From an uncultured bacterium (lineage in GTDB: Bacteria > Margulisbacteria > WOR-1 > CAVSGV01), in NCBI GenBank assembly GCA_963699255.1, contig OY969425.1:935112-999111 (forward strand): DNA of 64,000 bases, read 5' to 3'. A model generated the notes under the pieces. That model saw nothing but the letters and a program-made list of their open reading frames with translations, made no database searches and was not told where the DNA came from. The position numbers and the translations under genes were made by a program. Shown here in pieces: positions 19,728-57,209 of this stretch (position 1 is its first letter; each line of letters opens with the position of its first letter).

Positions 19728-19741
19728 AGGAGGAAAATATT

Positions 19742-20898: not shown

Positions 20899-20931
20899 TC
20901 CCTGATGCGCCCGCAATAGAAGGGGGAAGAT

Positions 20932-21207: not shown

Positions 21208-21308
21208 GCATTTTTATCTTCTTCCATCTAACATTTATCTAACACTTCGTTTCATTTTTTGCTGATTTTGACCGACTTACTCCGACTTTTCAATTTCAAT
21301 AAGGGGGC

Positions 21309-21503: not shown

Positions 21504-21504
21504 T

Positions 21505-31397: not shown

Positions 31398-31625
31398 AAT
31401 TCTATAGCCCCCGCTCCAGATCAGTCAAGCGCAATGATGGTCTTCAATTATATTATCAGGCTAATATGAAAACTACAAAAAGGTATTACTGCTACAATAA
31501 TGTAATCAATCGTTAAACAACCAACAAAAATGTAACAGTTAAGCGCTCTTGATAAGATACCTTCTCACAGATAAGGATGGCAATATTATTGCTGCTTATT
31601 ACGTGTAAGAAGGGATGTGAGGGAG

Positions 31626-31787: not shown

Positions 31788-33653
31788 ATGAACAAAAGTA
31801 AAATTGATTCGGCAAAACTGGTGAAACCAACGCTGGGATTATTGGGGGCGTCAATGAACGCGATGGCGCTGATAGCTCCGGGCGCGTTCCTGTGGATCAC
31901 CTATCAGCTGCAGGCCGCGGCGACCGCGCCCAGCGGCGCATCCGTCGCCGGCGACATCTGGGCGGGAATAGTCCTGGCCCTGATAGTCGCTTTTCTCACG
32001 GCTGTTTCATATTCCGAACTCGCGAAAATATATCCCGAAGCCGGTTTCGCCAGCGTCACGTATTTCGCGGAGAAAGCTTTCCTCGACCGCGAAGGCGCGA
32101 AAAGGTCCGCTCCGGCCTCCCTGGCCAGGATAGCGAAACTTATCACCGGCTGGGCGGCCCACCTGTTCTACTGGGTGTACCCCGGCATAATGGTCGCCAT
32201 GATGGCGAACCTCATCGGTTACATATATACACAGCTGACCGGGCTCACTTTATCTGTCATAGCGCTCACCATGATCGGCGTCGTCTTTACCGCAGTGACC
32301 GGGTACATAGCGTACCGCGGAGTAACGGGCTCCACAAAAACATCGATATGGATCAACGTCATTCAATGGGTAACCCTCATAATATTCAGCGGACTTGCCA
32401 TCTGGTACCGCGTTGCCAACCCGCAGGGCGTCACGGTGTGGGCTTTCAGCAGCGCCTGGGATGTCGTACGCCCACATACTATTAACGGCGTACTTGTACA
32501 GTCGACTCTCGCCATATTGATATTGGTCGGATTCGAAAGCTGCACGGCCCTCGCAGCTGAAACGAAAGAGCCGGAAAAGAACCTGCCGAAAGCCATTATC
32601 ATTTCTCTGATCATACAGGGGCTGATCGCGTATCTTCTTGAATATTTCGCGGCTGCCGCAATGATAGGAGACAAACTGGTCAACGGGAAGGTTTCCGGAA
32701 TGGCCGCGGCTGCGGCATCAGCCGCCCCCATCGGCGACCTTGCGAAGCTCATCGGCAAAAGCCTGCTCGGAGGCATAGGCTTCGGGCTCATGATAACGAT
32801 GGCGGTCACAGTGGCGATAGCCATCATCGGGACCACGCTCAGCTGCATGAACACCGCAATGAGGATAAGCGCCGGGATGGCGGAGGACAGGGAGCTTCCC
32901 ACGATGATGGGATTCATGTCCAGGAAATTCAGCACTCCCCACATGTCGCTTCTGATGTTGATACTGGTCTCGTCCGTAATAGCCGCCGTCGGCGTGCGGT
33001 CGGTCGTCGGATTGACGGGGATAACTCTCGCTTCGAACCTCGGCACTTTCATCCTTTACGGCCTGACGTGCATTTGGACTATAGTGGCATTCAAGGACAG
33101 GATCGAGTTCAATCTCCTGAAACACGGGATCATCCCTTTCCTAGGAGTGGTCACAAACATCATAATGGCGGTCGCCATCGTTTACCTGTACGCCGTCGGG
33201 AATGCGGACGCTAAAGCCGAAGCGGATATCTGCTTCCTCATCGCGGGCGCATGGGGGCTTGTCAGCGTCGCTTATGTTGTGCTCACCAGCGTCAAGAGGT
33301 CGTACAGCCTTAAAATGGTCTCGGCGATGATCCGCCCGGAATCATTGAATGCTCTTGTGGACGTTCTCCAGGACGAAGAGCTCATCCTCGGGATAACGGT
33401 CACGAAAGTGAAAGGGTTCGGAAGGCAGAAAGGCAAGATAGACGCGGATGCGGAGCCCATCAATGACAAAATATCCTTCATCCCCAAACTGCGCGTGGAT
33501 CTTGTGGTGAACGACTGGGATGCTCCGGAGGTCATGAAGATAATGAGGGACGCATTGTTCACAGGCAATATCGGGGACGGGAAAATATTCGTCATGGATG
33601 CAGCCGACGCCATGAGGATAAGAACGGGAGAACGCGGCGTGTTCGCCGTCTAA
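31788..33653 (+). CDS. APC-superfamily amino-acid/polyamine permease fused to a C-terminal PII (GlnB-like) signal-transduction domain
   Basis: About 500-aa polytopic domain with the APC motif GFESCTALAAETKEPEKNLPKAI; the last ~110 aa (MVSAMIRPESL...KVKGFGRQKGK...GNIGDGKIFVMDAADAMRIRTGERG) carry PII T-loop and GDGKIF signatures. Confidence 0.7.
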   Translation: MNKSKIDSAKLVKPTLGLLGASMNAMALIAPGAFLWITYQLQAAATAPSGASVAGDIWAGIVLALIVAFLTAVSYSELAKIYPEAGFASVTYFAEKAFLDREGAKRSAPASLARIAKLITGWAAHLFYWVYPGIMVAMMANLIGYIYTQLTGLTLSVIALTMIGVVFTAVTGYIAYRGVTGSTKTSIWINVIQWVTLIIFSGLAIWYRVANPQGVTVWAFSSAWDVVRPHTINGVLVQSTLAILILVGFESCTALAAETKEPEKNLPKAIIISLIIQGLIAYLLEYFAAAAMIGDKLVNGKVSGMAAAAASAAPIGDLAKLIGKSLLGGIGFGLMITMAVTVAIAIIGTTLSCMNTAMRISAGMAEDRELPTMMGFMSRKFSTPHMSLLMLILVSSVIAAVGVRSVVGLTGITLASNLGTFILYGLTCIWTIVAFKDRIEFNLLKHGIIPFLGVVTNIIMAVAIVYLYAVGNADAKAEADICFLIAGAWGLVSVAYVVLTSVKRSYSLKMVSAMIRPESLNALVDVLQDEELILGITVTKVKGFGRQKGKIDADAEPINDKISFIPKLRVDLVVNDWDAPEVMKIMRDALFTGNIGDGKIFVMDAADAMRIRTGERGVFAV

Positions 33654-39123: not shown

Positions 39124-40359
39124 TTAATGGTTCACGCCGTTTTCTTTCTTAAATTGAGCGACCAGAGCCGGGATATCCAGATACGCGCGCATCGAATCCG
39201 TACAGCAGAAGAATTTTTTCGCGTTCTTATCCACGTATTTTTTTATCGCGGGGAAATCGTCCTGAAGTTTCAGCAGCTGGACCATCGCCTCTTTCATTAA
39301 GAACATCTTGATAAGTTTCTTTTCGTCTCCCGTGGCGCCGTCGTGATCAAAAAAGCGGGACAGGGGCTTTTCCAATACCTGATAATAGAAAGGATCCACA
39401 AAACCCCTGAAATGTTGCATGGTGTCGATCTTTGCCGCCGCAACATACGAATATGTCCTGAGGACAAGCGGATCGTCCGCCCATGTAAGCGCTTTCAGGT
39501 TCTTTATATATTGTCCGTATTCACCCGCAAAACAGACGTATTTATCCACATTAGATAAATAGGCTGCTCCAATCTCCTTTTTTACGTCCGAGCCGGCTTC
39601 AGACATCGCCTGATTAATGACTCTCGAGACTTTCCTGTCCGCGATATTCCCTTCTATGATCGCAATGTCATTATTTATTGCCCGCTCTCGCAGATAATTG
39701 AATGATTCCATGGTGAACAGCCACTCGTTCTGGTAAGGCTTAAGGGACGTCTCCCCTGTCCAAATATGAAAGAACGAATACAGGAATATATCCCTCAGGA
39801 ATCTTTTTTCAGGGTTGGTCAACATTTCCGTTAACAGGGCGAATTCTTCCGCGTCTTTTATTGCACCCCTTGCATACTGGAGATTTTTCTGGGCTATCAT
39901 CATATTACCACAACCCTCGTTTTTTATGGGATCGCTGATATCAAAAATATGCTTCGAGATCGCGCTCAAGAGTTCGTTATCATCCTGAATGGCAATGTTT
40001 CGTGCCTCCTTGATGAGCATGGCGCTTTTTGCAAAAGCAAGGAATTCAAAAGGATTCTTTGTGATCTTTAATAATGTCTTTATCGCCGAAAGGTGGTCGG
40101 CAACATCAACGGAAACATCCACTATTATCGATTTCTGCGGCTTAATTTTGCATATGTGATCGAAGTTCTGATGGCTGCCGATCCCTAAATATATCCCTTT
40201 TGTCTCCCTCTGACCATAAGTAAATCCGGACAATCTTTCATTGGAATGGATGTCTCCAAATCCCCCGCTTTCAAACCCCACCGTACATCCCGGCGGACGT
40301 ATCTTCTTAATATAAGCGGGAGCCTTTATTCTCGTAACCGCCTTTGAAAATATGCTCAT
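39124..40359 (-). CDS. Hypothetical cytoplasmic protein (411 aa)
   Basis: Long ORF with no signal peptide and no motif I can place. Confidence 0.5.
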   Translation of the reverse strand: MSIFSKAVTRIKAPAYIKKIRPPGCTVGFESGGFGDIHSNERLSGFTYGQRETKGIYLGIGSHQNFDHICKIKPQKSIIVDVSVDVADHLSAIKTLLKITKNPFEFLAFAKSAMLIKEARNIAIQDDNELLSAISKHIFDISDPIKNEGCGNMMIAQKNLQYARGAIKDAEEFALLTEMLTNPEKRFLRDIFLYSFFHIWTGETSLKPYQNEWLFTMESFNYLRERAINNDIAIIEGNIADRKVSRVINQAMSEAGSDVKKEIGAAYLSNVDKYVCFAGEYGQYIKNLKALTWADDPLVLRTYSYVAAAKIDTMQHFRGFVDPFYYQVLEKPLSRFFDHDGATGDEKKLIKMFLMKEAMVQLLKLQDDFPAIKKYVDKNAKKFFCCTDSMRAYLDIPALVAQFKKENGVNH

Positions 40360-40524
40360 GATATCTTCTTATCGATAAAATCAATGAAAAATCCCACTTT
40401 TCACAGCGGATCCCCGCGCGAAGCAACACTACTGGTCAGAAAAGCCATGCCTCCAAAACAATGCAAGTTTACGGCGCCATCTCCCGATATATATCATGGA
40501 AGATGAAGCAAAGGAGATGTGCAA

Positions 40525-40776
40525 ATGAGCGGATCAATAAGCGGATTATCCTTAAATTCCAGTACCGCAATATCAAGTGCGCAAGACGAGACGAATTTAT
40601 TCGATGCGATCAACAGCATCGCCACAAGTTCATCGTCAGATTCGGATTCGGATGCTATTGATTCCATGGCTTCATCCCTGAATAGTTCAGCGCCATCCAG
40701 CACAAGCACAAGCGGTACCAGCTCTGTATCAAATCCCTTTTCAACTTCGGGGACGATAACGAACACCATAGCTTAG
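40525..40776 (+). CDS. Ser/Thr-rich low-complexity small protein
   Basis: RBS AAGGAG then ATG; translation is over 40% Ser/Thr (SSSSDSDSDAIDS...). Coding status uncertain. Confidence 0.3.
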   Translation: MSGSISGLSLNSSTAISSAQDETNLFDAINSIATSSSSDSDSDAIDSMASSLNSSAPSSTSTSGTSSVSNPFSTSGTITNTIA

Positions 40777-40833: not shown

Positions 40834-40862
40834 TTTACATTGCTTATTTTATTCACTATAAT
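40834..40862 (+). promoter_or_regulatory. Sigma-70-like promoter (TTTACA-N17-TATAAT) ending 6 nt before the rpoN ATG
   Basis: -35 at 40834-40839, -10 at 40857-40862; rpoN ATG at 40869 with no room for an RBS, so a leaderless transcript is predicted. Confidence 0.45.
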
Positions 40863-40868: not shown

Positions 40869-42236
40869 ATGAACAAACTGGGGCTCGGATATGAACTTAA
40901 CCTCTCAAATACGCTTGAGCTGATGCTCTCGCCGCGCATGATCCAGATGCTCAGGATGCTGAACCTCTCCTATGTGGAGCTTGTGGAGGAGATAGAGAAA
41001 AGATCCGAAGAGAACGTGATGCTGGAGCTGGAACACCCGGACAGGCTGCTGGAATACCTGAAGCACATAAGCACCGAGAGGATATCTAAAAAGGAGATCC
41101 CTTATGAAGAGCTGCCGGGAATAGAGAGCCTGGCCGACACGGCAGAGACCCTTGAGGACCACCTCCTCAAGCAGCTTGATCTTGAAGAGCTGAATGAAAA
41201 GAAAAGAAAGATCGCTGAATTCATCATAGGCAGTATCGACACGAGAGGTTATCTGCAGAATTACGAGCAGATCAGCGGAGCGATAAAAAAGGAACTGGGC
41301 GCGAGCCAGAATGAGATAGACAGCACGCTGGAGGTGATCCAGGATCTGGAGCCGGATGGCGTGGGAGCAAGGGCCCTGAAGGAATGCCTCCTTATACAGG
41401 TAAGGGAATACAACTTTGAAAGCGAAGAACTGGAAGATTTGCTGACAAAGGCGATAGAGGACCACCTGGATGACTTCGCGGAAAAGAAATTCGACAGGAT
41501 CGCGAAAGCGCTGAAGATCGGAAGGGACGGCGCCGAAAAGCTCGCCGAGTTCATAAAGAACAACCTCAATCCCAACCCGGGATCGATGTTCGCCGAGAGG
41601 CTTCCCTGCGTGATCCCTTCTTTTTCGATCGTAAAAGAAAAGGACAAATACAAGGCCGTTAACCTGGAAAAGACCTACGGCCCGTCGCTCAAGATCAGTC
41701 CCGTGTATGAAAAAATGCTGAGAGACCCGAAAACCGACGCGAAGAGCCTTGAATTCCTGAAGGAAAAACTTGAAGCGGCAAAGGATTTCCTGGAGAACAT
41801 CGCGAAACGGCATGAAACGATCGAAAAAATACTTGACCTGATAATCGCGGCCCAGAGCGGATCTTTTGAAGGCGGCAAGCTTAAGTTGAACCCTCTTATG
41901 CAAAAGAACATCGCAAAGGACCTCGGCCTTCACCCGTCCACCATCTCAAGGGCGATCGCGAACAAATATATACAGACCCCCCGCGGGATCATCCTCCTGA
42001 AAACCCTCTGCCCCCGGGAGATAAAAGGCACGACCGGCGAAAAGATCCATAAGCTTATACAGGTCATCATCGATTCGGAAGACAAAAAAGATCCGCTGAC
42101 GGACGAGGAGATAGCCGAAAAGCTGAAGAGCGACGGCCTGTACCTTGAGAGAAGGACCGTGGCTCTGTACAGGAAAAAGCTGGGATTTGAAATAGCTTCG
42201 AAAAAGAGTGAAATTTTAAGTCGGAACATACGATAA
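40869..42236 (+). CDS. rpoN: RNA polymerase sigma-54 factor
   Basis: Region I LELMLSPRMIQMLRMLNLSYVELVEEIE; HTH LGLHPSTISRAIANKYIQTPRGIILLKTL; RpoN box ERRTVALYRKKLG. Confidence 0.9.
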   Translation: MNKLGLGYELNLSNTLELMLSPRMIQMLRMLNLSYVELVEEIEKRSEENVMLELEHPDRLLEYLKHISTERISKKEIPYEELPGIESLADTAETLEDHLLKQLDLEELNEKKRKIAEFIIGSIDTRGYLQNYEQISGAIKKELGASQNEIDSTLEVIQDLEPDGVGARALKECLLIQVREYNFESEELEDLLTKAIEDHLDDFAEKKFDRIAKALKIGRDGAEKLAEFIKNNLNPNPGSMFAERLPCVIPSFSIVKEKDKYKAVNLEKTYGPSLKISPVYEKMLRDPKTDAKSLEFLKEKLEAAKDFLENIAKRHETIEKILDLIIAAQSGSFEGGKLKLNPLMQKNIAKDLGLHPSTISRAIANKYIQTPRGIILLKTLCPREIKGTTGEKIHKLIQVIIDSEDKKDPLTDEEIAEKLKSDGLYLERRTVALYRKKLGFEIASKKSEILSRNIR

Positions 42237-42266
42237 TATAGCGTCAAAACACCTATTCGCAAGGCC

Positions 42267-43721
42267 TTGACGGAAGCGGGAGAAAAAATGACCGACGGTA
42301 AAGCAGACATATTGATAGTTGAAGATGAAAAAAACGTAAGAGCCGCGCTCTCCCTTGCTCTCTCGGATAAATACAACCTCTTTTCGGCATCCGACGGGAA
42401 AAAGGCCCTCGAAATGATCTTTGAAAGGAACATCGACCTGGTGCTTCTGGACATAAGGCTTCCCGAAGTGAACGGGATGGACGTCCTTAAACAAATAAAG
42501 GACATGAGCAGCTCGATCCCGGTGATAATGCTTACGGCAGTCAGGACCGTTGATTCCGCCGTATCAGCCATGAAGCTCGGCGCCTACGATTACGTGATAA
42601 AGCCTTTTGACATAAACGAACTGATGGCGCTGATCGAAAAAGCGCTTGAAAAAAGGAACCTTGAAAAGGAGAACGTTTTTCTGAAGAACGAGCTTGAGAA
42701 GACCGGCGGCTTTGAAAAGATCATAGGCATGAGCGAGAAAATGAGGGAAATTTTCAAGCTGATAAAAAGCGTGGCGAGAGGCGACGCAACGGTGCTTATC
42801 ACAGGAGAGTCCGGGACCGGCAAGGAACTTGTCGCGAGGGCGATACACCACCAGAGCAAGAGGGCAAAAAAACTGTTCGTCCCGGTGAACTGCGCGGCGA
42901 TCCCCGAGAACCTTCTCGAGTCCGAGCTCTTCGGCTATGAAAAGGGCGCTTTTACGGGGGCGTATGAGCGGCGTCTGGGTAAATTCGAGATCGCCAACGG
43001 CGGAACGATATTCCTGGATGAGATAAGCACAATGCCGCTCCCAATGCAGGCAAAGCTACTCAGGGTCCTTCAGGAGCGCGTCATAGACAGGGTGGGCGGC
43101 ACGATCCAGGTAGAGATCGACGTGAGAGTGATCTCCGCCACGAATTCGGACCTTAAACAGGAGGTCGACAACAAAAAATTCAGGGGCGACCTGTTCTACA
43201 GGCTTAACGTGATCCCGATGGTCATCCCTCCGCTCAGGGAGCGAACGGAAGACATACCTCTGCTGGTGAACTATTTCCTTGATAAGTACAACAAGGAGTT
43301 CGGCAAAAAGATAAAAGAGTTCGACGCTGATGCCATGCACGTTCTCACTTCCTATCCCTGGCCGGGCAACGTCAGGGAACTGGAGAACCTGATAGAGCGG
43401 CTCGTGGTCCTGAGCGACAGGAACATTATCACAAAAGACAAGCTCCCTCCCGAGATATACAAAAAGCTGATGGACGAACACGCGAAAAGATTCGAAATGG
43501 ACTTCATAAAACAAGCCATACAAAAATCCAACTTGAACGAACGGCAGCTGAAAGCGATAGAACTCGTCAAAAGCCAGGGGAAGATAACGAAGCAAACCTA
43601 TATCAAGCTGACCAACACCCCGAAAACCACTGCTTTCAGGGACCTGCATACGCTCGTAAAGCTCCACATATTGACCCAGAAAGGCATCGGAAAGAGCTCC
43701 TGCTACACGCTCTCGGATTAG
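42267..43721 (+). CDS. Sigma-54-dependent response regulator (NtrC/PilR-like activator)
   Basis: REC domain; AAA+ domain with Walker [15 protein letters not shown] loop and Walker B FLDEI; the C-terminal DNA-binding region is not the usual Fis-type HTH. Confidence 0.9.
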
Positions 43722-43743
43722 CGCCCGGAATCCAGTCCACTTA

Positions 43744-43781
43744 GGACCGCAAACGGACCGCAAAACGGACCGCAAAACGGA
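43744..43781 (+). repeat. Three tandem copies of GGACCGCAAA(A)C
   Basis: GGACCGCAAAC GGACCGCAAAAC GGACCGCAAAAC GGA, 23 nt after the activator stop codon and about 110 nt before the next gene. Confidence 0.7.
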
Positions 43782-43888
43782 AACTCATCATATTTACCCG
43801 CGTCCATTATGGCTTTATTTGGTATGATAATTGCTATATAATAGATGGAACCAATGTTTAGGCACGATCCTATAAAGGAGTGATCTAC

Positions 43889-44290
43889 ATGGCAAGGCTT
43901 GAGCCCGGTGAGCAGAATGAACAAAAAGAGATGAACCCGAAGTTCCTTTCCGTGATCCTTGACAGGGATTTCCAGAAACAGCAACTCGAGGAAAAAGACA
44001 GATCAAAGGTGGAGCTGTTCGAGCGCGGGCTCGCGTGTGAGCTATTAACGTCCGATACCATCGACAGGTCCGTGGAAAAGATAGTGAAAATGGCCCTTGC
44101 CTGCGAATTCGGCGCGGAGCTGGTAACAAAACCGGCCGCAAAAAAAATGGTCTCCGTTATAAGCCGCGGCATCCTGTCGGACAGGGATCTGAGGAGATCC
44201 GCTCTTATCATAGCCGACAGGTTCGCGACCAGCAGGAAGACCAAGATCGTGCCTCTTAGGGGGAAGGGAAAGTCCGTGATAAATGGCTGA
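43889..44290 (+). CDS. Hypothetical protein (133 aa) between the two activator genes
   Basis: RBS AAAGGAG then ATG at 43889 (the tracked ORF starts on GTG at 43880); its stop overlaps the start of the next gene. Confidence 0.5.
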   Translation: MARLEPGEQNEQKEMNPKFLSVILDRDFQKQQLEEKDRSKVELFERGLACELLTSDTIDRSVEKIVKMALACEFGAELVTKPAAKKMVSVISRGILSDRDLRRSALIIADRFATSRKTKIVPLRGKGKSVING

Positions 44291-45587
44291 TATTAAACCA
44301 GTAATACTTGTCGTCGATGACGAAACGAACATAAGAGAATCTTTCACCCTCATTCTGGAGAAAGAATTCAATGTGATCACCGCCGCCTCAGGAGAAGCCG
44401 CGCTTAAAAGGATCATAGACGAGAAGGTCGACCTGGTATACCTCGACATAAGAATGCCGGGAATGAACGGCATGGAAACGCTTAAGAGGATAAAAGAAAT
44501 AGACAGCAGCATTGAAGTTATAATGGTCACCGCACTGAATGACGTTGGAGGCGCGGCCGCCGCGATCAAGCTCGGGGCCAAAGATTACATCGTAAAGCCT
44601 TTCGACGTGAAGGATATCCTGAACAGGACGAGAAGCTTTGTGATAAAAGCCCAGACAAAAGCCATAAAGCCGCCAATGGAGGATGAACTGATAGGCAACA
44701 GCAGGCAGATCCAGAACATAAGGAAAGTTGTGGAGCAGCTATCGCAAAAGGGCTCTTCCGTACTGATCATCGGGGAGAAGGGACTCGAAGCCGAACAGAT
44801 CGCCGCGATCGTGAACGGCGAATCCGAAAAGGAACTGAAGAAGCTGGACGCGTCTTCCGATCTCGGAAGTTGGGTCCTTTTTGGGCGCGAGAAGGGTTCT
44901 TTCACGTCTGAGTTCGAAAAAGAAGCCGGCATGCTGGAGGAAGCGAACGGTGGCATACTGTTCATAAGGAACATAGAACTCCTTCCCATGGACGTTCAGA
45001 AAAAGCTGGGACAGGCGCTTTCAAAAAAAGAATTTTCCCGCGACGGCTCCTCTGCGGCGATACACGTGGACTTGAGGGTTATAGCGGAAACATCCGCAGA
45101 TCCGGCTGAACTCATAAAAGAAGGCAGCTTTGACAGGGACCTTTATAACGCCATAAGCAGAACGGTGATCGAGCTGCCTCCGCTCAGGATGAGGGAAAGC
45201 GACATACCGATACTGATAAACCACTATGTTGATAAATTTTCGATCAAATACGACAGGCAATTAAAAGTATCCCCCGAAGCCCTTGAAATACTCGCGGGCT
45301 ATCCATGGCCCGGGAATCTGGCCGAGCTGTCGAACGTTATAGAGGCGATCATGCTGTCGAGCAAAAAGGAAGTGCTGGAACCGGACGATCTCCCCCTGGA
45401 TATCCTGATAAAAAGCCCCGCCGGAGGAAGGCCATTCACGACGCTTGAGAATATCGAAGGAAAGTTCGAAAAAGCCCATATCCTTAGCGTTTATAAAAAA
45501 GCCGGGGAAAGCAAAGAGAAGGCTTCGGCAATGCTCGGTATAGGGCTGAAGACCCTGGAATCCAAGCTTGAATCGATCAACGCCTGA
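44283..45587 (+). CDS. Response regulator with degenerate sigma-54-activator AAA+ domain
   Basis: Intact REC; Walker A position reads GEKGLEAE (no GK), GAFTGA position reads GSFTSEF, Walker B position reads FIRNI. Confidence 0.7.
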   Translation: MADIKPVILVVDDETNIRESFTLILEKEFNVITAASGEAALKRIIDEKVDLVYLDIRMPGMNGMETLKRIKEIDSSIEVIMVTALNDVGGAAAAIKLGAKDYIVKPFDVKDILNRTRSFVIKAQTKAIKPPMEDELIGNSRQIQNIRKVVEQLSQKGSSVLIIGEKGLEAEQIAAIVNGESEKELKKLDASSDLGSWVLFGREKGSFTSEFEKEAGMLEEANGGILFIRNIELLPMDVQKKLGQALSKKEFSRDGSSAAIHVDLRVIAETSADPAELIKEGSFDRDLYNAISRTVIELPPLRMRESDIPILINHYVDKFSIKYDRQLKVSPEALEILAGYPWPGNLAELSNVIEAIMLSSKKEVLEPDDLPLDILIKSPAGGRPFTTLENIEGKFEKAHILSVYKKAGESKEKASAMLGIGLKTLESKLESINA

Positions 45588-46243
45588 TGGCCTCAAGACT
45601 TATCCCGATAGACCTCCTTATCCTTGACTTTGACGGCACGCTTACGGACTCGATCCCGCCCGCGGTCGCCGCGATACAGAAAATGCTCAAAAAACTGGGC
45701 CTTCCCTACAGATCAAAGAAAGAGATCAATGAACACGTCGGCTACGGAGAGCCCCCGCTTCTTGAAGGGTCAACAGGTTCCAAAGACCCGGAGCTGCTGA
45801 AGAAAGCGATGAGCACCTATGAGAAGATATATATGAAAGAAGGGATCAAAAAAGTCACATTATATCCCCACGTGAAGGGATTCCTTGAATATTTCAAAGA
45901 TAAGCCAAAAATTATCGTTTCCAACAAAAAAGATCTTTTCATAAAAATGATACTCAAGAACCTGGGGTTGACGAAGTATTTTAAAGAAATTCATGGAGGG
46001 GATACCCTGCCCTGCCTTAAGCCGGACCCGCACGCGATAAACATCATGATAAAGAAATACCGGGTTTCGAGGAATCGGGTGTTGTTCATCGGGGACATGA
46101 CGGTGGACATCGAGACCGGAAAGAACGCGCATGTGCGCACATGCGCTGTGACCTACGGATTTGACAGCGTGAGCAAATTAAAGAAGCACAAGCCTGATAT
46201 CCTGATCGATAATCTGATGGAGCTGAAGGATCTGATAGAATGA
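45587..46243 (+). CDS. HAD-superfamily hydrolase (phosphoglycolate phosphatase-like)
   Basis: Motif I LILDFDGTLTDS and motif FIGDMTVD. Confidence 0.75.
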   Translation: MASRLIPIDLLILDFDGTLTDSIPPAVAAIQKMLKKLGLPYRSKKEINEHVGYGEPPLLEGSTGSKDPELLKKAMSTYEKIYMKEGIKKVTLYPHVKGFLEYFKDKPKIIVSNKKDLFIKMILKNLGLTKYFKEIHGGDTLPCLKPDPHAINIMIKKYRVSRNRVLFIGDMTVDIETGKNAHVRTCAVTYGFDSVSKLKKHKPDILIDNLMELKDLIE

Positions 46244-46244: not shown

Positions 46245-46329
46245 TGCCCAGAGTCGGACTCGAACCGACATGACCTATTCGGTCAAGGGATTTTAAGTCC
46301 CTCGCGTCTACCAATTCCGCCATCCGGGC
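46245..46329 (-). tRNA. tRNA-Leu (anticodon UAA)
   Basis: Reverse complement GCCCGGATGGCGGAATTGGTAGACGCGAGGGACTTAAAATCCCTTGACCGAATAGGTCATGTCGGTTCGAGTCCGACTCTGGGCA folds by eye into a cloverleaf with a long variable arm; no encoded CCA. Confidence 0.8.
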
Positions 46330-48478: not shown

Positions 48479-49174
48479 TCACCATATCAAAATTGAAACA
48501 ATTGCCCCCAAAGCGAGGAAAGGCGCGAACGGAATATAATCCTCCCTGTTCAGCTTTTTCAGCAGGATTAGCGCTATGCCCGCTGCGGCTCCGGTCAGCG
48601 AAGCGAAGAGAACGGATAGAAGCGTCCTCTCGATGCCGAGATTTGCCCCGAGCATGATAAGCAGCTTTATATCCCCGTCGCCCATCGCCTCTTTTTTTAA
48701 CGCGTATTTTGCCGCCGACGAGATCAGGAACATGAACGAAAAACCGAAACAAGCGCCGGTCAGGCTTTCGATAAAGTTGCCGCTATAAGCCGAATACGCG
48801 AGCCCCGTGCCGATCCCGATCAGCATCAGGAAATCGGGGATCACCATGTGTTCAATGTCAATAAAAGAAATAAGGACCAGCAGGATCGAGAATATTAAAA
48901 TAGCGGCGAACCGGACTGAAAAACCCACCTTTAGATAGAAGATCAATAACAGCGCCGCGGTCAGGGCTTCAACAACAGGATAGCGGATGGATATCTTTTC
49001 CCCGCAATATCTGCAGCGGCCGCGAAGGATCAAATAACTGATCAGGGGAATAAGGTCGTAAGCTCTCAAAGTTGACTTGCATTTCGGGCAGTGGGACGGC
49101 GGGTAAACGATCGATCCCTCTTCAGGGATCCTGGAAATACATACGTTCAGAAAACTTCCCGTAACAAGGCCCAA
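48479..49174 (-). CDS. pilD: Prepilin peptidase (A24 family)
   Basis: Zinc-binding CPKC...CRYCGEKIS and catalytic region MGDGDIKL; multiple TM helices. Confidence 0.8.
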   Translation of the reverse strand: MGLVTGSFLNVCISRIPEEGSIVYPPSHCPKCKSTLRAYDLIPLISYLILRGRCRYCGEKISIRYPVVEALTAALLLIFYLKVGFSVRFAAILIFSILLVLISFIDIEHMVIPDFLMLIGIGTGLAYSAYSGNFIESLTGACFGFSFMFLISSAAKYALKKEAMGDGDIKLLIMLGANLGIERTLLSVLFASLTGAAAGIALILLKKLNREDYIPFAPFLALGAIVSILIW

Positions 49175-49229
49175 AACAATTATTAGTGAGTAAATCGCTG
49201 CCGTTTCTACTTTAATGCCGCCTCTTTTC

Positions 49230-49258
49230 TTGACTTTACCAGCAAATAAATATATATT
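49230..49258 (+). promoter_or_regulatory. Sigma-70-like promoter (TTGACT-N17-TATATT) for the REC-pilB-pilC operon
   Basis: -35 at 49230-49235, -10 at 49253-49258. Confidence 0.4.
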
Positions 49259-49288
49259 AGTATATCTTTGAAGTCAAATCCGTCTTGA

Positions 49289-49308
49289 CCTGCCTGCCGG
49301 CAGGCAGG
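49289..49308 (+). promoter_or_regulatory. Perfect 20-bp GC-rich palindrome CCTGCCTGCCGGCAGGCAGG in the leader of the pilus operon
   Basis: Exact inverted repeat (10+10) between the predicted promoter and the ATG at 49322, with no following T-run. Confidence 0.5.
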
Positions 49309-49321
49309 GGCAGAAAGATCT

Positions 49322-49675
49322 ATGAAAAAAATCCTAGTGGTGGACGACGAGGAAAGCGTAAGAATCATATTAAAACAGATGCTTGAAAAGGGCGGCTACA
49401 GCGTTGAGGTCAGGAGCGACGGAGAGGAAGCGCTGGGGGCGCTAAAAAGCGGCCGTTTTAACATGCTTATCACCGACATTAATATGCCGAAAATGAACGG
49501 CATTGAACTCCTTTATAAAACAAAAGAAGAGTTCCCCGCCATGCCTGTGGTCTTTATCACCGCTTACGGAAAAGACAAAACGATAATTGAGGCAATGAAA
49601 ATGGGGCTCTCCGATAACATAGAAAAACCGTTCAGGATGGATGATGTCCTGAAGACCGTTAAAGACCTCATTTAA
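49322..49675 (+). CDS. Stand-alone response-regulator receiver (CheY-like)
   Basis: 117 aa; KILVVDDEESVR...MLITDINMPKMNG with acceptor Asp; no output domain. Confidence 0.8.
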   Translation: MKKILVVDDEESVRIILKQMLEKGGYSVEVRSDGEEALGALKSGRFNMLITDINMPKMNGIELLYKTKEEFPAMPVVFITAYGKDKTIIEAMKMGLSDNIEKPFRMDDVLKTVKDLI

Positions 49676-49692
49676 AGAAGGGACGTGAGCAG

Positions 49693-51390
49693 ATGCCCGT
49701 CAGGCAAAGAAAATCCCTCGGGGAAAGCCTTGTTGAACAAAAGATAATATCCGAAGAGCAGCTCAGGACCGCCGTAAAAGAAAGCGAGAACAGCGGCGAA
49801 CCGCTGAGAAAAACGCTTGTAAAGACCGGATTGGTCTCTGAAGAAGACATCTGCGGCTTCTTTGAGGAACAGCTAGGGATCCCCAGAATAGACCTGAAAA
49901 ATTACCTGATAGATCAAAAGATACTTTCGCTGATCCCCGAAAGTCTCGCCAAGAAATACAACCTGATCCCGCTTTTCAAGACCGGGGATACCCTGACGAT
50001 AGCCACCGCCGACCCTCTAAATGTCGTGGCTATGGATGAGATCAGGATAAAGACCAAAAGCAACATTGAACCCGCGGTGGCGACAGAAACCGAAATAAGG
50101 AACTCGATAAACCAGTATTACGGGGTAGGCGGCTCCATAGAAGACATCATCAGGAGCATTGACATAAAATCGCTCGCCATAGATGAAGGCAAGGAAGAAA
50201 TAGAGCCGGAAAAGCTGAAAAATATCGCGGAAGAAGCGCCCATAATCAAGCTTGTGAACCTGATAATCCTTCAGGCGATAAGGGATAAAGCTTCCGATAT
50301 TCACGTGGAACCGGAAGAGGACAGCCTGCAGATCAGGTTCAGGGTCGATGGGATCCTGCATGAGCAGGCCACCATCCCGAAACAGATGCAGGCGGCGGTG
50401 CTTTCCAGAATGAAAATAATGTCCGACATGAACATCGCGACAAAAAGGATCCCTCAGGACGGAAGGTTCAGGTTGAACATAGAGGGAGGACAGATAGATA
50501 TGAGAGTGTCATCCCTCCCGACCATCTTCGGCGAAAATATCGTGATGAGGCTTCTTGATACGACAAGCATACTTATCGGTCTGGAAAGGCTGGGCTTTGA
50601 CGAAAAAAACCTTGAAAAATTCAAGTCCCTTATCGTCAAACCGCACGGGATAATCCTTGTTACGGGTCCTACAGGTTCCGGGAAAACAACGACGCTGTAT
50701 TCCGCTTTGAACACCATAAACACTCCGGACAAGAACATCATTACGGTCGAAGATCCGGTGGAATATCAGCTGAAAATGATCCGCCAGTCGCAGATAAACC
50801 CGAAAGCGGGGCTTACTTTCGCGACGGGACTGCGTTCGATCTTAAGGCAGGATCCGGACGTAATAATGGTCGGTGAAATAAGGGACCTGGAGACGGCTGA
50901 AATATCGATCCAGGCGGCGCTGACCGGGCATCTGGTGTTTTCCACCCTTCACACGAACGATGCCCCCAGTTCGCTGACCAGATTGACCGACATGGGGGTT
51001 GAACCTTTCCTTATATCCTCTTCCGTGATCGGGATCATCGCCCAGAGACTTGTAAGAACGATATGTCCGTCCTGCAAGCAATCCTATACCCCTTCCAAGG
51101 AGGCCCTTGATGATATAGGCGTAACACTTCCGGAAGGACCGCTGAAGTTCTACAGGGGCGCCGGATGCAAGGTCTGCAAGAACACCGGATACAAAGGCAG
51201 GATAGGGATATTTGAAATGCTCCTGCTTGATGACAAGATCAGGGACCTGATCCTTGCCAAAACCTCGAGTGCTCAGATAAAACACCTGGCGCAGGAATCC
51301 GGCATGAAGACGCTGCGCGAGGACGGGGTCGTAAAAGTGCTCGCGGGCGCTACCACGATAGATGAAGTTATCAGGGTAACTCAGGAATAA
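49693..51390 (+). CDS. pilB: Type IV pilus assembly ATPase (GspE/PilB family)
   Basis: N-terminal GspE-type domain, Walker A VTGPTGSGKTTTLYS, C-terminal tetracysteine CPSC...CKVCKNTGYKGRIGIFE. Confidence 0.9.
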   Translation: MPVRQRKSLGESLVEQKIISEEQLRTAVKESENSGEPLRKTLVKTGLVSEEDICGFFEEQLGIPRIDLKNYLIDQKILSLIPESLAKKYNLIPLFKTGDTLTIATADPLNVVAMDEIRIKTKSNIEPAVATETEIRNSINQYYGVGGSIEDIIRSIDIKSLAIDEGKEEIEPEKLKNIAEEAPIIKLVNLIILQAIRDKASDIHVEPEEDSLQIRFRVDGILHEQATIPKQMQAAVLSRMKIMSDMNIATKRIPQDGRFRLNIEGGQIDMRVSSLPTIFGENIVMRLLDTTSILIGLERLGFDEKNLEKFKSLIVKPHGIILVTGPTGSGKTTTLYSALNTINTPDKNIITVEDPVEYQLKMIRQSQINPKAGLTFATGLRSILRQDPDVIMVGEIRDLETAEISIQAALTGHLVFSTLHTNDAPSSLTRLTDMGVEPFLISSSVIGIIAQRLVRTICPSCKQSYTPSKEALDDIGVTLPEGPLKFYRGAGCKVCKNTGYKGRIGIFEMLLLDDKIRDLILAKTSSAQIKHLAQESGMKTLREDGVVKVLAGATTIDEVIRVTQE

Positions 51391-51401
51391 GATAATTCAG
51401 C

Positions 51402-52616
51402 ATGCCAACTTTTTCCTATAAAGCGAGAGACGAAACCGGCAAGCCGATCTCCAGCATAATGGAAGCGTCAAATAAAGATGCCCTTGCCTCAAGGCTGCAA
51501 AAGCTCAAGTACACGGTCATCTCAATTTCCGAAAAAGCGATCCCGTTCACAATAGATAAGTTCCTGCGAAGGTTCACCAGAGTAAAGATCAATGACCTGG
51601 TAATGTTCAATGTTCAACTTGCCAATATGATAGGCGCCGGGATCCCGTTGCCATCGAGCCTTATGACCCTTTCGGAACAGATCGAGAACGAAAGATTAAA
51701 GGATGCCGTAAGCGACGTATATAACGAGATAAAGGGAGGCCAGACCTTCGCTGACTCCTTAAAAAAACATCCCGATATTTTCCCCCCGCTTTTCACGAAC
51801 ATGATACATGCCGGCGAGGTCGCCGGGAACCTGGATGAAATATTGAACAGGCTGGCGACATTCGTGGAACACGAATCGGAGCTGAGGCAAAAAATAACCA
51901 CGGCGCTGTTTTATCCGATGATCCTTGCCGTATTCGGCACTGCCGTCGTGGTGTTAATTATTGTTACTATACTTCCCTCTTTCGCCAAAATATTCATCGA
52001 AGCTAATGTTCCGCTGCCGCTGCCGACAATGGTGCTTTATAACCTGAACCTGGTAATAAGGGCTTACTGGAAGCATATTATTGTGGCGATTGCAGCGCTG
52101 TTCTTTCTCGCGAGGTGGTACAAAAGGACCCCGACCGGGAAATATTACCTGGACAGCGCCATGCTCAATATCCCTGTCTGGGGAAAACTGATAAGGGAGT
52201 CAACGGTCGCCCGCCTCACAAGGACACTTGCGTCGCTCATTTCAGCCGGCGTCCCGATGCTGCAGTCACTTGAGGTAACGGAGAAGACAATAGACAACTC
52301 GATAATCTCCGGGGTTCTGAAGGACGTATATTCATCGGTAAGCAAAGGCGAGACTATTTCAGAACCGCTAAGGAAAAGCGGCCAGTTCCCGGCTATGCCC
52401 ATCCACATGATAGCCGTTGGTGAAGAAACCGGTGCACTGGATACAATGCTCAACAAAGTTGCCGATTATTACGACATGGAAACAGAATACAGCATAAAAA
52501 GGATCACTTCGCTTCTTGAGCCTATTTTTCTGGTCATTATCGGCGGTATGGTGGGATTCATTTTTGCATCTATACTGCTGCCCATATTCCAGATGGTGAA
52601 GACGCTGAAACACTAG
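51402..52616 (+). CDS. pilC: Type IV pilus inner-membrane platform protein (GspF/PilC family)
   Basis: Two-repeat GspF architecture with three TM segments; 404 aa. Confidence 0.9.
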   Translation: MPTFSYKARDETGKPISSIMEASNKDALASRLQKLKYTVISISEKAIPFTIDKFLRRFTRVKINDLVMFNVQLANMIGAGIPLPSSLMTLSEQIENERLKDAVSDVYNEIKGGQTFADSLKKHPDIFPPLFTNMIHAGEVAGNLDEILNRLATFVEHESELRQKITTALFYPMILAVFGTAVVVLIIVTILPSFAKIFIEANVPLPLPTMVLYNLNLVIRAYWKHIIVAIAALFFLARWYKRTPTGKYYLDSAMLNIPVWGKLIRESTVARLTRTLASLISAGVPMLQSLEVTEKTIDNSIISGVLKDVYSSVSKGETISEPLRKSGQFPAMPIHMIAVGEETGALDTMLNKVADYYDMETEYSIKRITSLLEPIFLVIIGGMVGFIFASILLPIFQMVKTLKH

Positions 52617-52768
52617 AGGAGCTAGAAGAACTAGATGTTAAGAGGTGAAAAGGTTGAGAAGAAAAAGAGGAAGGACCTCTTTACCTCTTCCACTTTTAGC
52701 TCCCCTAGCTCTTCTAATTCTTGCGTATTATTATTACGGTAGTATAATGTTTTTCGTCTCTGGTACAT

Positions 52769-53815
52769 ATGGAAATAAACAGCTTACTTAAAATAGTAGT
52801 TGAAAAAAATGCTTCGGATCTGCTCATCGTATCCGGAACAGCTCCTGTACTCAGGATCAACGGGGCGCTTTCTCCCATAGATTCCGCGAGACTCTCTGAA
52901 AGCGAAGCAAAATCCCTGATCTACGGTCTTCTCACTCCGAAACAGATAGAAACCTTCGAGAAAACAAAGGAACTTGACTGCGGTTATGAACTTAAAGGCG
53001 TATCAAGGTTCAGGGTCAACGTTCACTATCAAAGAGGCACGGCAGCAGCGGCACTGAGGCTTATCCCTTCCGAGATCCCGACGCTCGAGGACTTAAGGCT
53101 CCCAAATGTTGTTGCCGATTTCGCCAACCTTGAGCGGGGGCTGGTGCTTGTGACCGGACCCACGGGATCCGGGAAAACCACAACGCAGGCGTGCATGGTG
53201 GACATTATCAATGCGAGCAGGAGCCGCCACGTGATAACCATAGAAGACCCCATCGAATACGTCCACGGAAACAAAAGAAGCATTGTGGAACAAAGAGAGG
53301 TCGGACTCGACACCGAATCCTTTGATTCCGCCTTGAAGAGAGTGCTAAGGCAGAACCCTGATGTCATACTGATAGGGGAAATGAGAGACCTGGAAACCAT
53401 ACAAACCGCTATAACAGCCGCGGAAACAGGCCACCTTGTCATATCCACCCTTCATACGAACGACGCTGTGCAGGCGGTAGACCGCATTATCGATGTTTTC
53501 CCGCCATACCAGCAGACCCAGGTAAGGATGCAGCTTTCGCTGTCCCTGCAGGGGATAATGGCCCAGCAGCTTATACCGAGAATAGACAAGAAGGGACAGA
53601 TAGTCGCCACAGAGGTCCTTATTGCCACTTCGGCCGTCAGGAATTTGATCAGGAAAGGCACCACCCAGGAGCTATATTCCACACTGGACATAGGCGCGAA
53701 ATTCGGGATGCAGAGCATGGATGCCTGCCTTAAGAATCTATACAAGAACAAGTTGATATCATACGACGAAGCTTTCGCGCACGCGATAAACCAGGAGCAT
53801 TTCGAGAAACTTTGA
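52769..53815 (+). CDS. pilT: Twitching-motility retraction ATPase
   Basis: 348 aa; LVLVTGPTGSGKTTT Walker A, GHLVISTLHTND and general PilT length. Confidence 0.9.
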   Translation: MEINSLLKIVVEKNASDLLIVSGTAPVLRINGALSPIDSARLSESEAKSLIYGLLTPKQIETFEKTKELDCGYELKGVSRFRVNVHYQRGTAAAALRLIPSEIPTLEDLRLPNVVADFANLERGLVLVTGPTGSGKTTTQACMVDIINASRSRHVITIEDPIEYVHGNKRSIVEQREVGLDTESFDSALKRVLRQNPDVILIGEMRDLETIQTAITAAETGHLVISTLHTNDAVQAVDRIIDVFPPYQQTQVRMQLSLSLQGIMAQQLIPRIDKKGQIVATEVLIATSAVRNLIRKGTTQELYSTLDIGAKFGMQSMDACLKNLYKNKLISYDEAFAHAINQEHFEKL

Positions 53816-53839
53816 CATTTCGTCCCGTTATAATATAAT
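53812..53839 (+). promoter_or_regulatory. Sigma-70-like promoter (TTGACA-N16-TATAAT) for the pilin gene
   Basis: -35 at 53812-53817, -10 at 53834-53839, then RBS AGGAGGGGG and ATG at 53864. Confidence 0.45.
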
Positions 53840-53863
53840 GTAAAAAAAGGAGGGGGTGAAAAA

Positions 53864-54316
53864 ATGAAAACAAGCAAAGGCTTTACTCTTATCGAGTTAC
53901 TCATAGTCATGGCGGTCATAGCCATATTGATCGCTATAGCGATCCCTAGCTTCAGAGGCATGCAGCAGGAAGCAAGGAAGACAAAGGCTCAGGGCGACGT
54001 CAGGGTAATAAAGATTGCTATCGAATCTTACTACAAGAATCATAACAATCAATACCCGGCTACTGGAGTCGACTACCAGACAACACTGCAAAACGCTGTA
54101 CCAAGGATACTTGAAGGAACGTTGAACGATCCTTTCAGCGTAGGTGCAAATGTGCCTTATCAGTATGCTCTAAGCGGTGCAGACCCAACGAGTTCCGATT
54201 ACTATATCATATGGTCAGTCGGACCGAATCAATCAGCTGTACCGGCCACAGTGTCAACATCAGGCATTGTTACGGCAACAAATGAGGTGATCTGGGAATC
54301 GAACGGTCACATGTAA
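53864..54316 (+). CDS. Type IV pilin (major pilin candidate)
   Basis: Class III signal MKTSKG/FTLIELLIVMAVIAILIAIAIPSF with Glu5 after the G/F cleavage site; 150 aa. Confidence 0.85.
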   Translation: MKTSKGFTLIELLIVMAVIAILIAIAIPSFRGMQQEARKTKAQGDVRVIKIAIESYYKNHNNQYPATGVDYQTTLQNAVPRILEGTLNDPFSVGANVPYQYALSGADPTSSDYYIIWSVGPNQSAVPATVSTSGIVTATNEVIWESNGHM

Positions 54317-54350
54317 TCACGGAATGTCTTTAAAGACATGTTGATTTAAA

Positions 54351-54381
54351 GGGAGCTGACTAGTCGGCTCCCTTTCTTTTT
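54351..54381 (+). terminator. Intrinsic terminator after the pilin gene
   Basis: Stem GGGAGC...GCTCCC followed by TTTCTTTTT. Confidence 0.55.
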
Positions 54382-54384
54382 AAT

Positions 54385-54545
54385 TTCCAATGACCAATCC
54401 CAAATAAATACCAATTAATTTGCAATTACCAATTTGACAATTGACCGCTAAGTACAAAAGCGCACAATTTGTCTTATTTCATTGACTAATTGGACATTGG
54501 TCATTAATTTGACATTTGACACTGGAAATTGGTAATTGATTTTCC
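54385..54545. repeat. Low-complexity intergenic repeat (CCAAT / ATTGG and TTGACA motifs)
   Basis: CCAATGACCAATCC...CAATTACCAATTTGACAATTGACC...TTGGACATTGGTCATTAATTTGACATTTGACACTGGAAATTGGTAATTG with inverted symmetry. Confidence 0.55.
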
Positions 54546-54564
54546 TTTGTGTTATCATTTCTTC

Positions 54565-54924
54565 ATGAAATCAAAGGGTTTTACTCTACTTGAGATCCTC
54601 CTGATAATAATCATCCTTATTTTAGTTTTCTTTCCGCTTTTGGAGATGCTCTCAAGCGGCCTTCTGGTAAGCGACAAAGTAAAAAGCACGAACACCGCCA
54701 TGATACTTGCCCAGCAACAAATGGAGGCCGTTAAGAATTCCTCCTTCACTTCCATAAGCAGCACACCTCAGACCACGATCGCGTCATACCCGGCCTATAG
54801 CTCACAGGTCATAGTAAGCACGCCTCAAACTAATTTAAAGGATGTTCAGGTGATAGTATACTGGCTTTCGGTCACAGGATCACAAACAAGTGTATCTATT
54901 GAAACATTTATATCGAATTTCTAA
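54565..54924 (+). CDS. Minor pilin / pseudopilin with prepilin-type N-terminus
   Basis: MKSKG/FTLLEILLIIIILILVF; start taken at the internal ATG at 54565. Confidence 0.65.
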   Translation: MKSKGFTLLEILLIIIILILVFFPLLEMLSSGLLVSDKVKSTNTAMILAQQQMEAVKNSSFTSISSTPQTTIASYPAYSSQVIVSTPQTNLKDVQVIVYWLSVTGSQTSVSIETFISNF

Positions 54925-54937
54925 GGAGCTCACACAG

Positions 54938-55501
54938 ATGCTTGGATTTGCTCAGCATGACACACAATGTCGCTCTGAACGAAGTGAAGGATCTGCCTTG
55001 AAGGAAAGTCTGCGGCGTTCTGCAGGGTTCACCTTAGTGGAATCCGTTTTAGTGCTGGCTATGCTCGGTTTTTTGATGGTCGTGATCTTTTACGCCTTCA
55101 CGGCCTCCATGCGCATCTTCACGAGTGAGATGTCCGAAGCCGATACATCCCTGGAAACGCACAGGGCCATGGAGCGGATGACAAAAGAGCTGAGGGGCGC
55201 CCTTCAGATAGTTTCGGCGGAGGCTTCAAGCATAACCTTCTGGTATAACGATCTAAATGGTGATGGAACAATGGAAGCGAATGAAACCGTAACATATTCC
55301 TGGACAGGAGCATCTCCGGGATACATAAACAGGACTGTGCAAACTTCGACACAGGAGGTCTCGTCCGGGATCATGAACTTTTCTCTTACATATAATGACC
55401 CGGACCCGTCCAATATCAACTTCATCACCATATTTATGGCCGCTCAGAATGGCTCTACCATGAGCACGCTCGAATCCAGTGTGGACTGCAGAAATTTATG
55501 A
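54938..55501 (+). CDS. Minor pilin / pseudopilin with long leader
   Basis: RRSAG/FTLVESVLVLAMLGFLMVVIFYAF after a ~30-aa leader; RBS AAGGAG before the ATG at 54938. Confidence 0.6.
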   Translation: MLGFAQHDTQCRSERSEGSALKESLRRSAGFTLVESVLVLAMLGFLMVVIFYAFTASMRIFTSEMSEADTSLETHRAMERMTKELRGALQIVSAEASSITFWYNDLNGDGTMEANETVTYSWTGASPGYINRTVQTSTQEVSSGIMNFSLTYNDPDPSNINFITIFMAAQNGSTMSTLESSVDCRNL

Positions 55502-55513
55502 TATAATCAGGTT

Positions 55514-57130: not shown

Positions 57131-57209
57131 AAATAGAAATTGAAGACCCGAGACTAAAGTCTCGGATAAGTTAACCGCGACTTCAGTCGCAAGGTTTAGG
57201 AAAAATAAT

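Follow-up and report, generated by a model that had tools for sequence, protein, structure and literature searches.

A conserved rpoN cassette of uncultivated Margulisbacteria in which a probable sigma-54 promoter precedes the genes for a small orphan protein and a degenerate activator paralogue

From the genome of an uncultured bacterium of the Margulisbacteria (WOR-1; assembly GCA_963699255.1), a 64-kb stretch of contig OY969425.1 (positions 935,112 to 999,111, here referred to as the window) was analyzed, in which five genes lie in a row on the forward strand. They encode the sigma factor sigma-54 (RpoN), a sigma-54 activator of the enhancer-binding protein family with receiver (REC) and AAA+ domains (EBP1), a small protein of 133 aa, a second REC-AAA+ protein (EBP2) and a HAD-type hydrolase (Table 1). 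All five were recovered where the initial annotation of this DNA had placed them, and the translational coupling proposed there for the small gene and for the HAD gene is likewise apparent, as the stop codon of the small open reading frame (ORF) overlaps the EBP2 start (ATGGCTGA) and the HAD start overlaps the EBP2 stop (TGATG). Also in agreement with that annotation, which had noted the lack of a nearby histidine kinase, neither HisKA nor HATPase_c was matched by any of the scanned gene-like ORFs of at least 120 aa across the window.

Table 1. Features of the rpoN cassette and its surroundings. Positions are those of the window.
Feature	Position	Strand	Description
Sigma-70-type rpoN promoter	40834-40862	+	TTTACA-17-TATAAT
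rpoN (sigma-54)	40869-42236	+	455 aa; Pfam Sigma54_AID, Sigma54_CBD, Sigma54_DBD; TIGR02395
EBP1, REC-AAA+ sigma-54 activator	42288-43721	+	REC, Sigma54_activat, AAA lid
Putative upstream activator sites	43734-43781	+	AGTCC, then three direct GGACCGCAAAAC repeats at 11-12 bp spacing; TRF score 69
Probable sigma-54 promoter	43820-43835	+	-24 TGGTAT, -12 TTGCT; GG-N10-GC, TGGTATGATAATTGCT; about 43 nt before the small ORF
Small orphan protein	43889-44290	+	133 aa; ATG 43889 behind AAAGGAG; helical core, disordered tails on both sides
EBP2, pseudo-ATPase REC-AAA+ protein	44283-45587	+	REC intact, Sigma54_activat, AAA lid
HAD-IA hydrolase	45587-46243	+	Phosphoglycolate-phosphatase-like; HAD_2; best NCBIfam model below cutoff
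tRNA-Leu(TAA)	46245-46329	-	Convergent with the cassette, marks its downstream end
Type IV pilus locus	48479-59852	PilD -, rest +	REC-only gene, PilB, PilC, PilT, pilins, PilMN, PilO, PilQ

When species-representative genomes were scanned for the small gene, 12 loci were retrieved (loci are numbered with the prefix L in the following), all of them from metagenome-assembled genomes and, where labelled with a taxon, from Margulisiibacteriota, WOR-1 or Saganbacteria. In all 12, as well as in L142-L144, which were fetched through EBP2 homologues, an EBP2 orthologue follows the small gene, both reading frames overlapping or lying a few bases apart. This pair is immediately preceded by rpoN-EBP1 in the seven loci extending far enough upstream (L002-L008) and in L144, while in L012 EBP1 is found at the contig edge; the pairs of L009-L011 and L142/L143 are present without rpoN-EBP1. 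Judged from this gene order, the cassette is conserved across an uncultivated phylum comprising Margulisbacteria, Saganbacteria and WOR-1.

The rpoN product matches PF00309, PF04963 and PF04552 above cutoff and TIGR02395 with 327.7 bits (cutoff 277.35), and its translation includes ERRTVALYR, an RpoN-box-like motif. Since 6 nt separate the end of the -10 box from the ATG and a Shine-Dalgarno sequence is lacking, rpoN is probably transcribed as a leaderless mRNA. As 8 related loci share this layout (TATAAT-N6/7-ATG), the same probably applies across the phylum.

Within the EBP1 ORF, which opens at TTG 42267, the likely start is ATG 42288, preceded by a GGGAG ribosome-binding site. The protein matches Sigma54_activat (PF00158) with 246 bits and has all motifs intact, i.e., Walker A (GESGTGKE), the GAFTGA loop, Walker B (FLDEIS), the arginine finger and sensor II (PGNVRELEN). 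The receiver domains of EBP1, EBP2 and a REC-only protein encoded further downstream (49322-49675) reach 102-108 bits with PF00072, and in all three sequences the DD/ED, LDIRxP, T and KPF elements are visible and conserved. By these features, EBP1 is a canonical phosphorylation-controlled activator with an active-looking AAA+ domain. Its C-terminus, however, consists of a domain of about 65 aa standing in place of the usual Fis helix-turn-helix (HTH). In line with the non-Fis C-terminus initially ascribed to this activator, HTH_8 (PF02954) was not matched by the EBP1 C-terminus and the C-terminal alignment gave the same picture, all other Pfam matches remaining sub-threshold (HTH_IclR at E = 0.0099, HTH_DeoR at E = 0.015, TBPIP). 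The domain, which is probably a winged helix, is common to the window and L002-L006. In contrast, the EBP1 orthologues of L007, L008, L012 and L144 bear a Fis HTH, with GIHRNTL in the first three, among which the L008 protein was the only one scored against HTH_8 (40 bits). A search with the 66-aa C-terminus of EBP1 retrieved only three close homologues, one of them labelled 'predicted HTH transcriptional regulator', and Foldseek with its AF2 model (pLDDT 58) returned nothing below E = 4.

EBP2 likewise has REC and AAA+ domains, with a Sigma54_activat match of 107 bits compared with the 246 bits of EBP1. In an alignment of EBP1, EBP2 and 119 EBP2 homologues, every catalytic and sigma-54-contacting motif of EBP2 turned out to be destroyed, which substantiates the pseudo-ATPase assignment made earlier for this paralogue. 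Walker A reads GEKGLEAE with loss of the lysine (GESGTGKE in EBP1), the GAFTGA loop has become GSFTSE, Walker B is FIRNIE with RN in place of DE (FLDEIS in EBP1), the arginine finger is lost from a region now reading FDRDLYNAIS, and sensor II is PGNLAELSN with R replaced by A (PGNVRELEN in EBP1). As far as can be told from these replacements, EBP2 can neither bind or hydrolyse ATP nor contact sigma-54. Degenerate motifs are shared by more than 100 homologues with identities as low as 37%, the replacement motifs GILFIRNIE and GEKGLEAE recurring at 51-90% identity and more variable degenerate forms (GEAGTEKE, FINNLE) reaching down to the 37% level. Most of the named records among these homologues belong to Candidatus Margulisiibacteriota, WOR-1 and Saganbacteria; one JGI record labels an EBP2 homologue 'PilR'. 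The few homologues with intact motifs (P0081, P0083, P0089, P0117, and P0118) share 48-55% identity with EBP1, so that the closest relatives of EBP2 that are still active resemble EBP1, in keeping with paralogy of the two proteins. By its distribution, the EBP2 family is ancient, conserved and always paired with the small protein, and not a one-genome oddity.

Within the close clade, conservation along EBP2 is highest in the receiver domain, with a mean top-residue frequency of 0.87 (0.69 in the AAA+ domain) and 36 of 114 positions invariant. At the other end of the protein, the Fis-like helix reaches 17.8 bits with HTH_8 (cutoff 22), is devoid of HRNTL-type residues and has a net charge of 0 to +2, compared with +5 to +7 in genuine Fis HTHs of the same loci. 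Moreover, the L008 orthologue lacks the C-terminal helix altogether, and the EBP2 C-terminus does not switch in step with the domain swap in EBP1. EBP2 probably binds DNA poorly. Its nearest structures by sequence are of the NtrC type, for example, Aquifex NtrC4 (4L4U), with NtrX (5M7N) and VpsR (7V2B) being detectable relatives at lower scores.

The small protein has no match in Pfam and NCBIfam. Nevertheless, 57 homologues were found at 51-80% identity, with many invariant positions, and when 1.84 billion cluster representatives were searched with a profile, 54 family members emerged, all of them small proteins. The family is detectable down to 21% identity, and none of 49 members scanned against Pfam matches any family. 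A structure-based search with the small protein found nothing, and no sequence or fold similarity to PspA, HrpV, FleN, FliX and FlgM was detected. Its distant relatives (21-30% identity) are encoded in a triad consisting of the small gene, a gene for a protein of about 75 aa without Pfam match and a gene for a FliA-like sigma factor. In L134, L138 and L139, this triad directly follows flhA, and on a Saganbacteria contig (L140/L141) it is found without flhA. Members of the family are thus encountered wherever the genes for an alternative-sigma circuit of a surface appendage are present, a context which fits, without proving it, a role as adaptor or anti-factor.

The gap of 167 nt between EBP1 and the small gene holds a GG-N10-GC element together with a set of upstream sites. 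The former (TGGTATGATAATTGCT) deviates by two mismatches from TGGCAC-N5-TTGCW, and GG-N10-GC with TTGCT recurs before the small gene in the window (with L001) and in L002-L012 (e.g., TGGCATGAAAATTGCT, TGGCAATAAGCTTGCT, and GGGCGAGCAAATTGCT), embedded in flanks that cannot otherwise be aligned across clades. A matrix derived from the orthologous sites gives the element the top score in the window (21 bits), and only 4 positions in the 64 kb reach at least 17 bits, compared with 0.1 in shuffled sequence. In L144, which had not contributed to the matrix, the element reads TGGCGCGCAAATTGCT and precedes the small gene by about 35 nt. Altogether, the element is kept in 13 of 14 independent loci and is probably a sigma-54 promoter driving the small gene and EBP2.

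The upstream sites are located 40-85 bp upstream of the -24 element and represent the only cluster of at least three GGACCG in the window. In the six loci sharing the novel EBP1 C-terminus (window, L002-L006), the array consists of GGTCC and, after it, two to four GGACCG-like direct repeats spaced by 11-12 bp. Distant loci have one or two GCAC-N8-GTGC-type palindromes in place of the repeats, among them L007, L008, L012 and L144, i.e., the loci with a Fis-type EBP1 (in L007, the right half reads ATGC). The upstream sites co-vary in this way with the predicted DNA-binding domain of EBP1, GGACCG repeats going with the non-Fis domain and palindromes with the Fis HTH. Because the sites track this domain, EBP1 is the likely activator at the internal promoter, and the cassette would therefore comprise two transcription units in cascade, its own second unit being the first target. 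This revises the initial annotation in two respects. The five genes had been taken as one co-transcribed module, whereas the promoter and the upstream sites in the gap point to two units, and the sigma-54 targets, described as not obvious, would include a promoter inside the cassette. A metagenome scan for threefold GGACCG arrays revealed none with a sigma-54 site downstream among the matches listed, which were due to chance or Gly-Pro-like repeats.

Taken together, we lean, with little more than even confidence, towards a two-tier sigma-54 cassette in which the induced pair of small protein and EBP2 feeds back on the pathway. In the first tier, rpoN and EBP1 would be transcribed from the sigma-70 promoter, probably as a leaderless mRNA, and EBP1 would be phosphorylated by a kinase encoded elsewhere. 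In the second tier, activated EBP1 would bind the GGACCG array via its swapped-in winged-helix-like C-terminal domain and remodel the sigma-54 holoenzyme at the internal promoter, resulting in synthesis of the small protein and EBP2, with the HAD hydrolase as a passenger. The induced pair might then feed back on EBP1, EBP2 acting as a phospho-acceptor decoy, a poison subunit or both, and the small protein as a stoichiometric partner of EBP2 or as an anti-activator. In AAA+ proteins, an active site is made up of the Walker motifs of one subunit and the arginine finger of the next. As EBP2 is devoid of both, each EBP2 joining a ring would disable two sites, and in an alternating EBP1/EBP2 ring no ATP site would be complete. 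The action of EBP1 at the promoter as well as the biochemical roles of EBP2 and the small protein are what we infer from sequence and gene order. A more specific version, in which the small protein and the dead EBP constitute a sigma-54-induced brake of an undescribed kind (poison subunit or phosphate sink, together with an adaptor) and the small protein represents a new adaptor family for the alternative-sigma circuits of appendages, is speculative and, as it stands, unlikely.

Several points weigh against the two-tier cassette with feedback. TATAAT abuts the -12 TTGCT of the proposed promoter in all six close-clade loci (window, L002-L006). The sole exception among the 14 independent loci, L142/L143, has TAGCATAACGATTGCT with AG for the -24 GG, and the sigma-54 promoter of this lineage may be weakened or gone; the GCAC-N8-GTGC palindrome and TTGCT are kept at this locus. 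Moreover, the co-variation of EBP1 domain and upstream sites amounts in essence to a single evolutionary switch, palindrome and promoter element persist without an adjacent EBP1 in L009-L011 and L142/L143, and the palindromes are only about 22-31 bp upstream of -24, which is unusually close for an enhancer. On the forward strand, no terminator is predicted inside the cassette, including the stretch between the two units, and either sigma-70 transcription or read-through from rpoN-EBP1 may contribute to expression of the small gene and EBP2. In addition, binding of EBP2 or the small protein to EBP1 is hypothetical. Finally, the AAA+ domain and HTH of EBP2 keep positions conserved family-wide, hence some function, among them the C-terminal motif AA.LLG....LE.KL, and every atypical EBP characterized so far is a DNA-binding regulator of the sigma-70 type (PMC6158489).

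These last two points would be readily accommodated if EBP2 were itself an atypical EBP, i.e., a phosphorylation-controlled sigma-70 regulator, plausibly of the pilus locus, with the small protein as co-regulator and with sigma-54 and EBP1 setting its amount only. We consider this possible, if on balance doubtful. The combined loss of GAFTGA and Walker B does resemble the characterized atypical EBPs, which all act with sigma-70. Still, a DNA-binding regulator would hardly be expected to have the sub-cutoff, non-basic HTH described above, to lack the helix completely in L008 and to be most constrained in its receiver domain instead of its DNA-binding end. As to the pilus genes, the small gene-EBP2 pair is found at a distance of no more than about 1-4 kb from PilD/PilB in nine loci (window, L003, L004, L008, L012, L013, and L142-L144) in spite of varying intervening genes. 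Immediate adjacency, as assumed in the initial annotation, does not apply to the window, where the HAD gene and the REC-PilB operon are separated by tRNA-Leu as well as by the genes for S1, DivIC, enolase and PilD, all four on the opposite strand. The pilus operon opens with the gene for the 117-aa REC-only protein (49322-49675, forward strand), which is first in the operon also in L003 and L004. Its promoter (TTGACT-17-TATATT, 49230-49258) and the pilin promoter (TTGACA-16-TATAAT, 53812-53839) are indeed sigma-70-like, as noted before, and the sigma-54 matrix gave no match of at least 9 bits in any pilus intergenic region of the window, the sole sigma-54-like match of the locus being found inside pilB (51326-51341, 10.8 bits). 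The earlier suggestion that the cassette governs pilus or surface functions has the conserved neighbourhood as its sole support; sigma-54 sites before the pilus genes of the window were not found. A candidate operator for EBP2 would be the AAGTCAAA box (49271-49278), located about 12 nt downstream of the pilus-operon -10 and kept in six of six loci (window, L003, L004, L008, L012, and L013), yet no motif common to pilus promoters and cassette was found. The leader of the pilus operon in the window additionally contains a perfect 20-bp palindrome, CCTGCCTGCCGGCAGGCAGG (49289-49308).

Among the WOR-1 and Saganbacteria loci, sigma-54-like sites were noticed in L010 (6625-6640, reverse strand, TGGCGCCAAAATTGCT) and L011 (5130-5145, reverse strand, AGGCGGGATAATTGCT), in both cases preceding by 13-16 nt the ATG of the gene for a PilT-like ATPase. 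In these two loci, a pilus motor gene may thus be controlled by sigma-54 and transcribed as an almost leaderless mRNA.

Another explanation concerns the promoter itself. The GG-N10-GC element might not be a functional sigma-54 promoter at all, the small gene, EBP2 and the HAD gene being expressed from a sigma-70 element (TGnTATAAT-like) or by read-through, and the repeats being operators of another regulator. TATAAT directly after TTGCT in the six close-clade loci, the absence of a predicted terminator after EBP1 and the deviating L142/L143 site would all suit this explanation, and loose matches to the sigma-54 consensus are no commoner in the window than in shuffled sequence. It is nevertheless distinctly improbable in view of the exact 10-nt spacing of GG and TTGCT in 13 of 14 loci, including distant ones such as L010 and L012, where the element has no TATAAT after it, of the rarity of high-scoring positions in shuffles compared with the window, and of the setting of the element, which neighbours rpoN and the gene for an activator and is preceded by enhancer-like sites. 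The idea that EBP2 is merely a decaying duplicate and the small ORF spurious, suggested by the loss of every catalytic motif and by the missing family assignment, is refuted by the more than 100 EBP2 homologues which are full-length and bear the typical replacement motifs, the 57 homologues and invariant positions of the small protein, and the conservation of both as a pair.

A HAD gene downstream of EBP2 is confined to the window, L003, L004 and L005, and is absent from this position in L006, L008, L011, L012, L013 and L142-L144. With this distribution it was discarded as a core part of the module and reads as a dispensable accessory passenger. Upstream of the cassette, a Ser/Thr-rich 85-aa ORF (40519-40776, forward strand) is without family match and without counterpart in seven related loci; it was rejected as part of the module and is probably not a gene. 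Divergently from rpoN lies the gene for a DUF7790 protein (39124-40359, reverse strand), which weakly resembles the LIC_10091 lipoprotein family of Leptospira.

Elsewhere in the window, the second-best sigma-54-like site (TGGCAATATTATTGCT, 31578-31593, forward strand, 19.3 bits) precedes a possible ORF for a hydrophobic peptide of 41 aa and a gene for a 621-aa amino-acid-permease/P-II fusion (31788-33653). As no GGACCG array is present nearby, this site would require a different activator. Two further intergenic sites score about 17 bits, one (14985-15000, forward strand) about 75 nt before the gene for a signal-peptide PEGA-domain protein (start 15075) and the other (17546-17561, reverse strand) just upstream of the gene for an ORF6N-domain protein (17006-17530), which adjoins a BglII-like restriction-modification pair (17867-19344). 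The G+C content of positions 1-7000 and 17000-22000 is 0.38-0.42, compared with about 0.50 elsewhere, and ParB-like, PriCT primase, ORF6N and restriction-modification genes are located there, pointing to integrated mobile elements.

In bacteria, sigma-54 systems are the standard example of transcription that is driven by ATP and depends on an enhancer, and to our knowledge the activator paralogues without catalytic activity described up to now are all stand-alone regulators of the sigma-70 type. If the small protein and EBP2 do feed back on EBP1, this would represent a new design principle for the control of transcription by AAA+ proteins, with built-in dominant-negative subunits. The co-variation of EBP1 domain and upstream sites offers a ready-made, testable protein-DNA pair for an uncharacterized winged-helix-like domain, and the cassette would provide a phylum without cultured representatives with an initial, defined set of sigma-54 promoter and regulators, in addition to suggesting leaderless mRNAs, rpoN included, in this phylum.

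In Pseudomonas, Myxococcus and Geobacter, pilin genes are controlled by PilS/PilR and sigma-54. The arrangement described here is similar in that a REC-AAA+ activator and sigma-54 are encoded near type IV pilus genes, and differs in that no PilS-like kinase is encoded nearby and the pilus promoters of the window are of the sigma-70 type without a sigma-54 site. PspA (acting on PspF) and FliX (acting on FlbD) are accessory proteins which bind the AAA+ domain of an activator and thereby tune it. The same applies to HrpV (PMC4145663) and FleN (PMC8528422). In some of these systems (PspF-PspA, HrpR/HrpS-HrpV, FleQ-FleN, and FlbD-FliX), the accessory protein is made downstream of the sigma-54 activator, as would be the product of the small gene. 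A cascade comparable to the one proposed is known from the Fla1 system of Cereibacter (Rhodobacter) sphaeroides, where FleQ drives a sigma-54 operon encoding a second EBP, FleT, with which it then forms a hetero-oligomer (PMC7277832). Both share the order of master activator, sigma-54 promoter and second EBP-family protein. However, FleT is an activator together with FleQ, whereas EBP2 is without Walker A and B, GAFTGA and arginine finger, has a receiver domain and an obligate preceding small orphan, and its partnering with EBP1 is hypothetical. Comparable in architecture are the atypical EBPs VpsR, NtrX, TyrR, PhhR, HupR and HsfA, which have a degenerate GAFTGA and in some cases degenerate Walker motifs (PMC6158489). 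Like VpsR and NtrX, EBP2 has the REC-AAA+-HTH order, with receiver domain, PF00158 match (107 bits), AAA lid and lost GAFTGA. Atypical EBPs, by contrast, possess good HTHs and act with sigma-70, whereas the EBP2 HTH is sub-threshold and non-basic, its gene is placed under a probable sigma-54 promoter beside rpoN and coupled to an orphan gene, and by sequence EBP2 is closer to NtrC4 (4L4U) than to VpsR. Sigma-54 cascades, atypical EBPs and anti-activators each have precedent; what is new, as far as the searched literature shows, is their combination, i.e., a dead EBP paralogue, probably sigma-54-driven, beside rpoN and an active EBP, with an obligate orphan protein and phylum-wide conservation.

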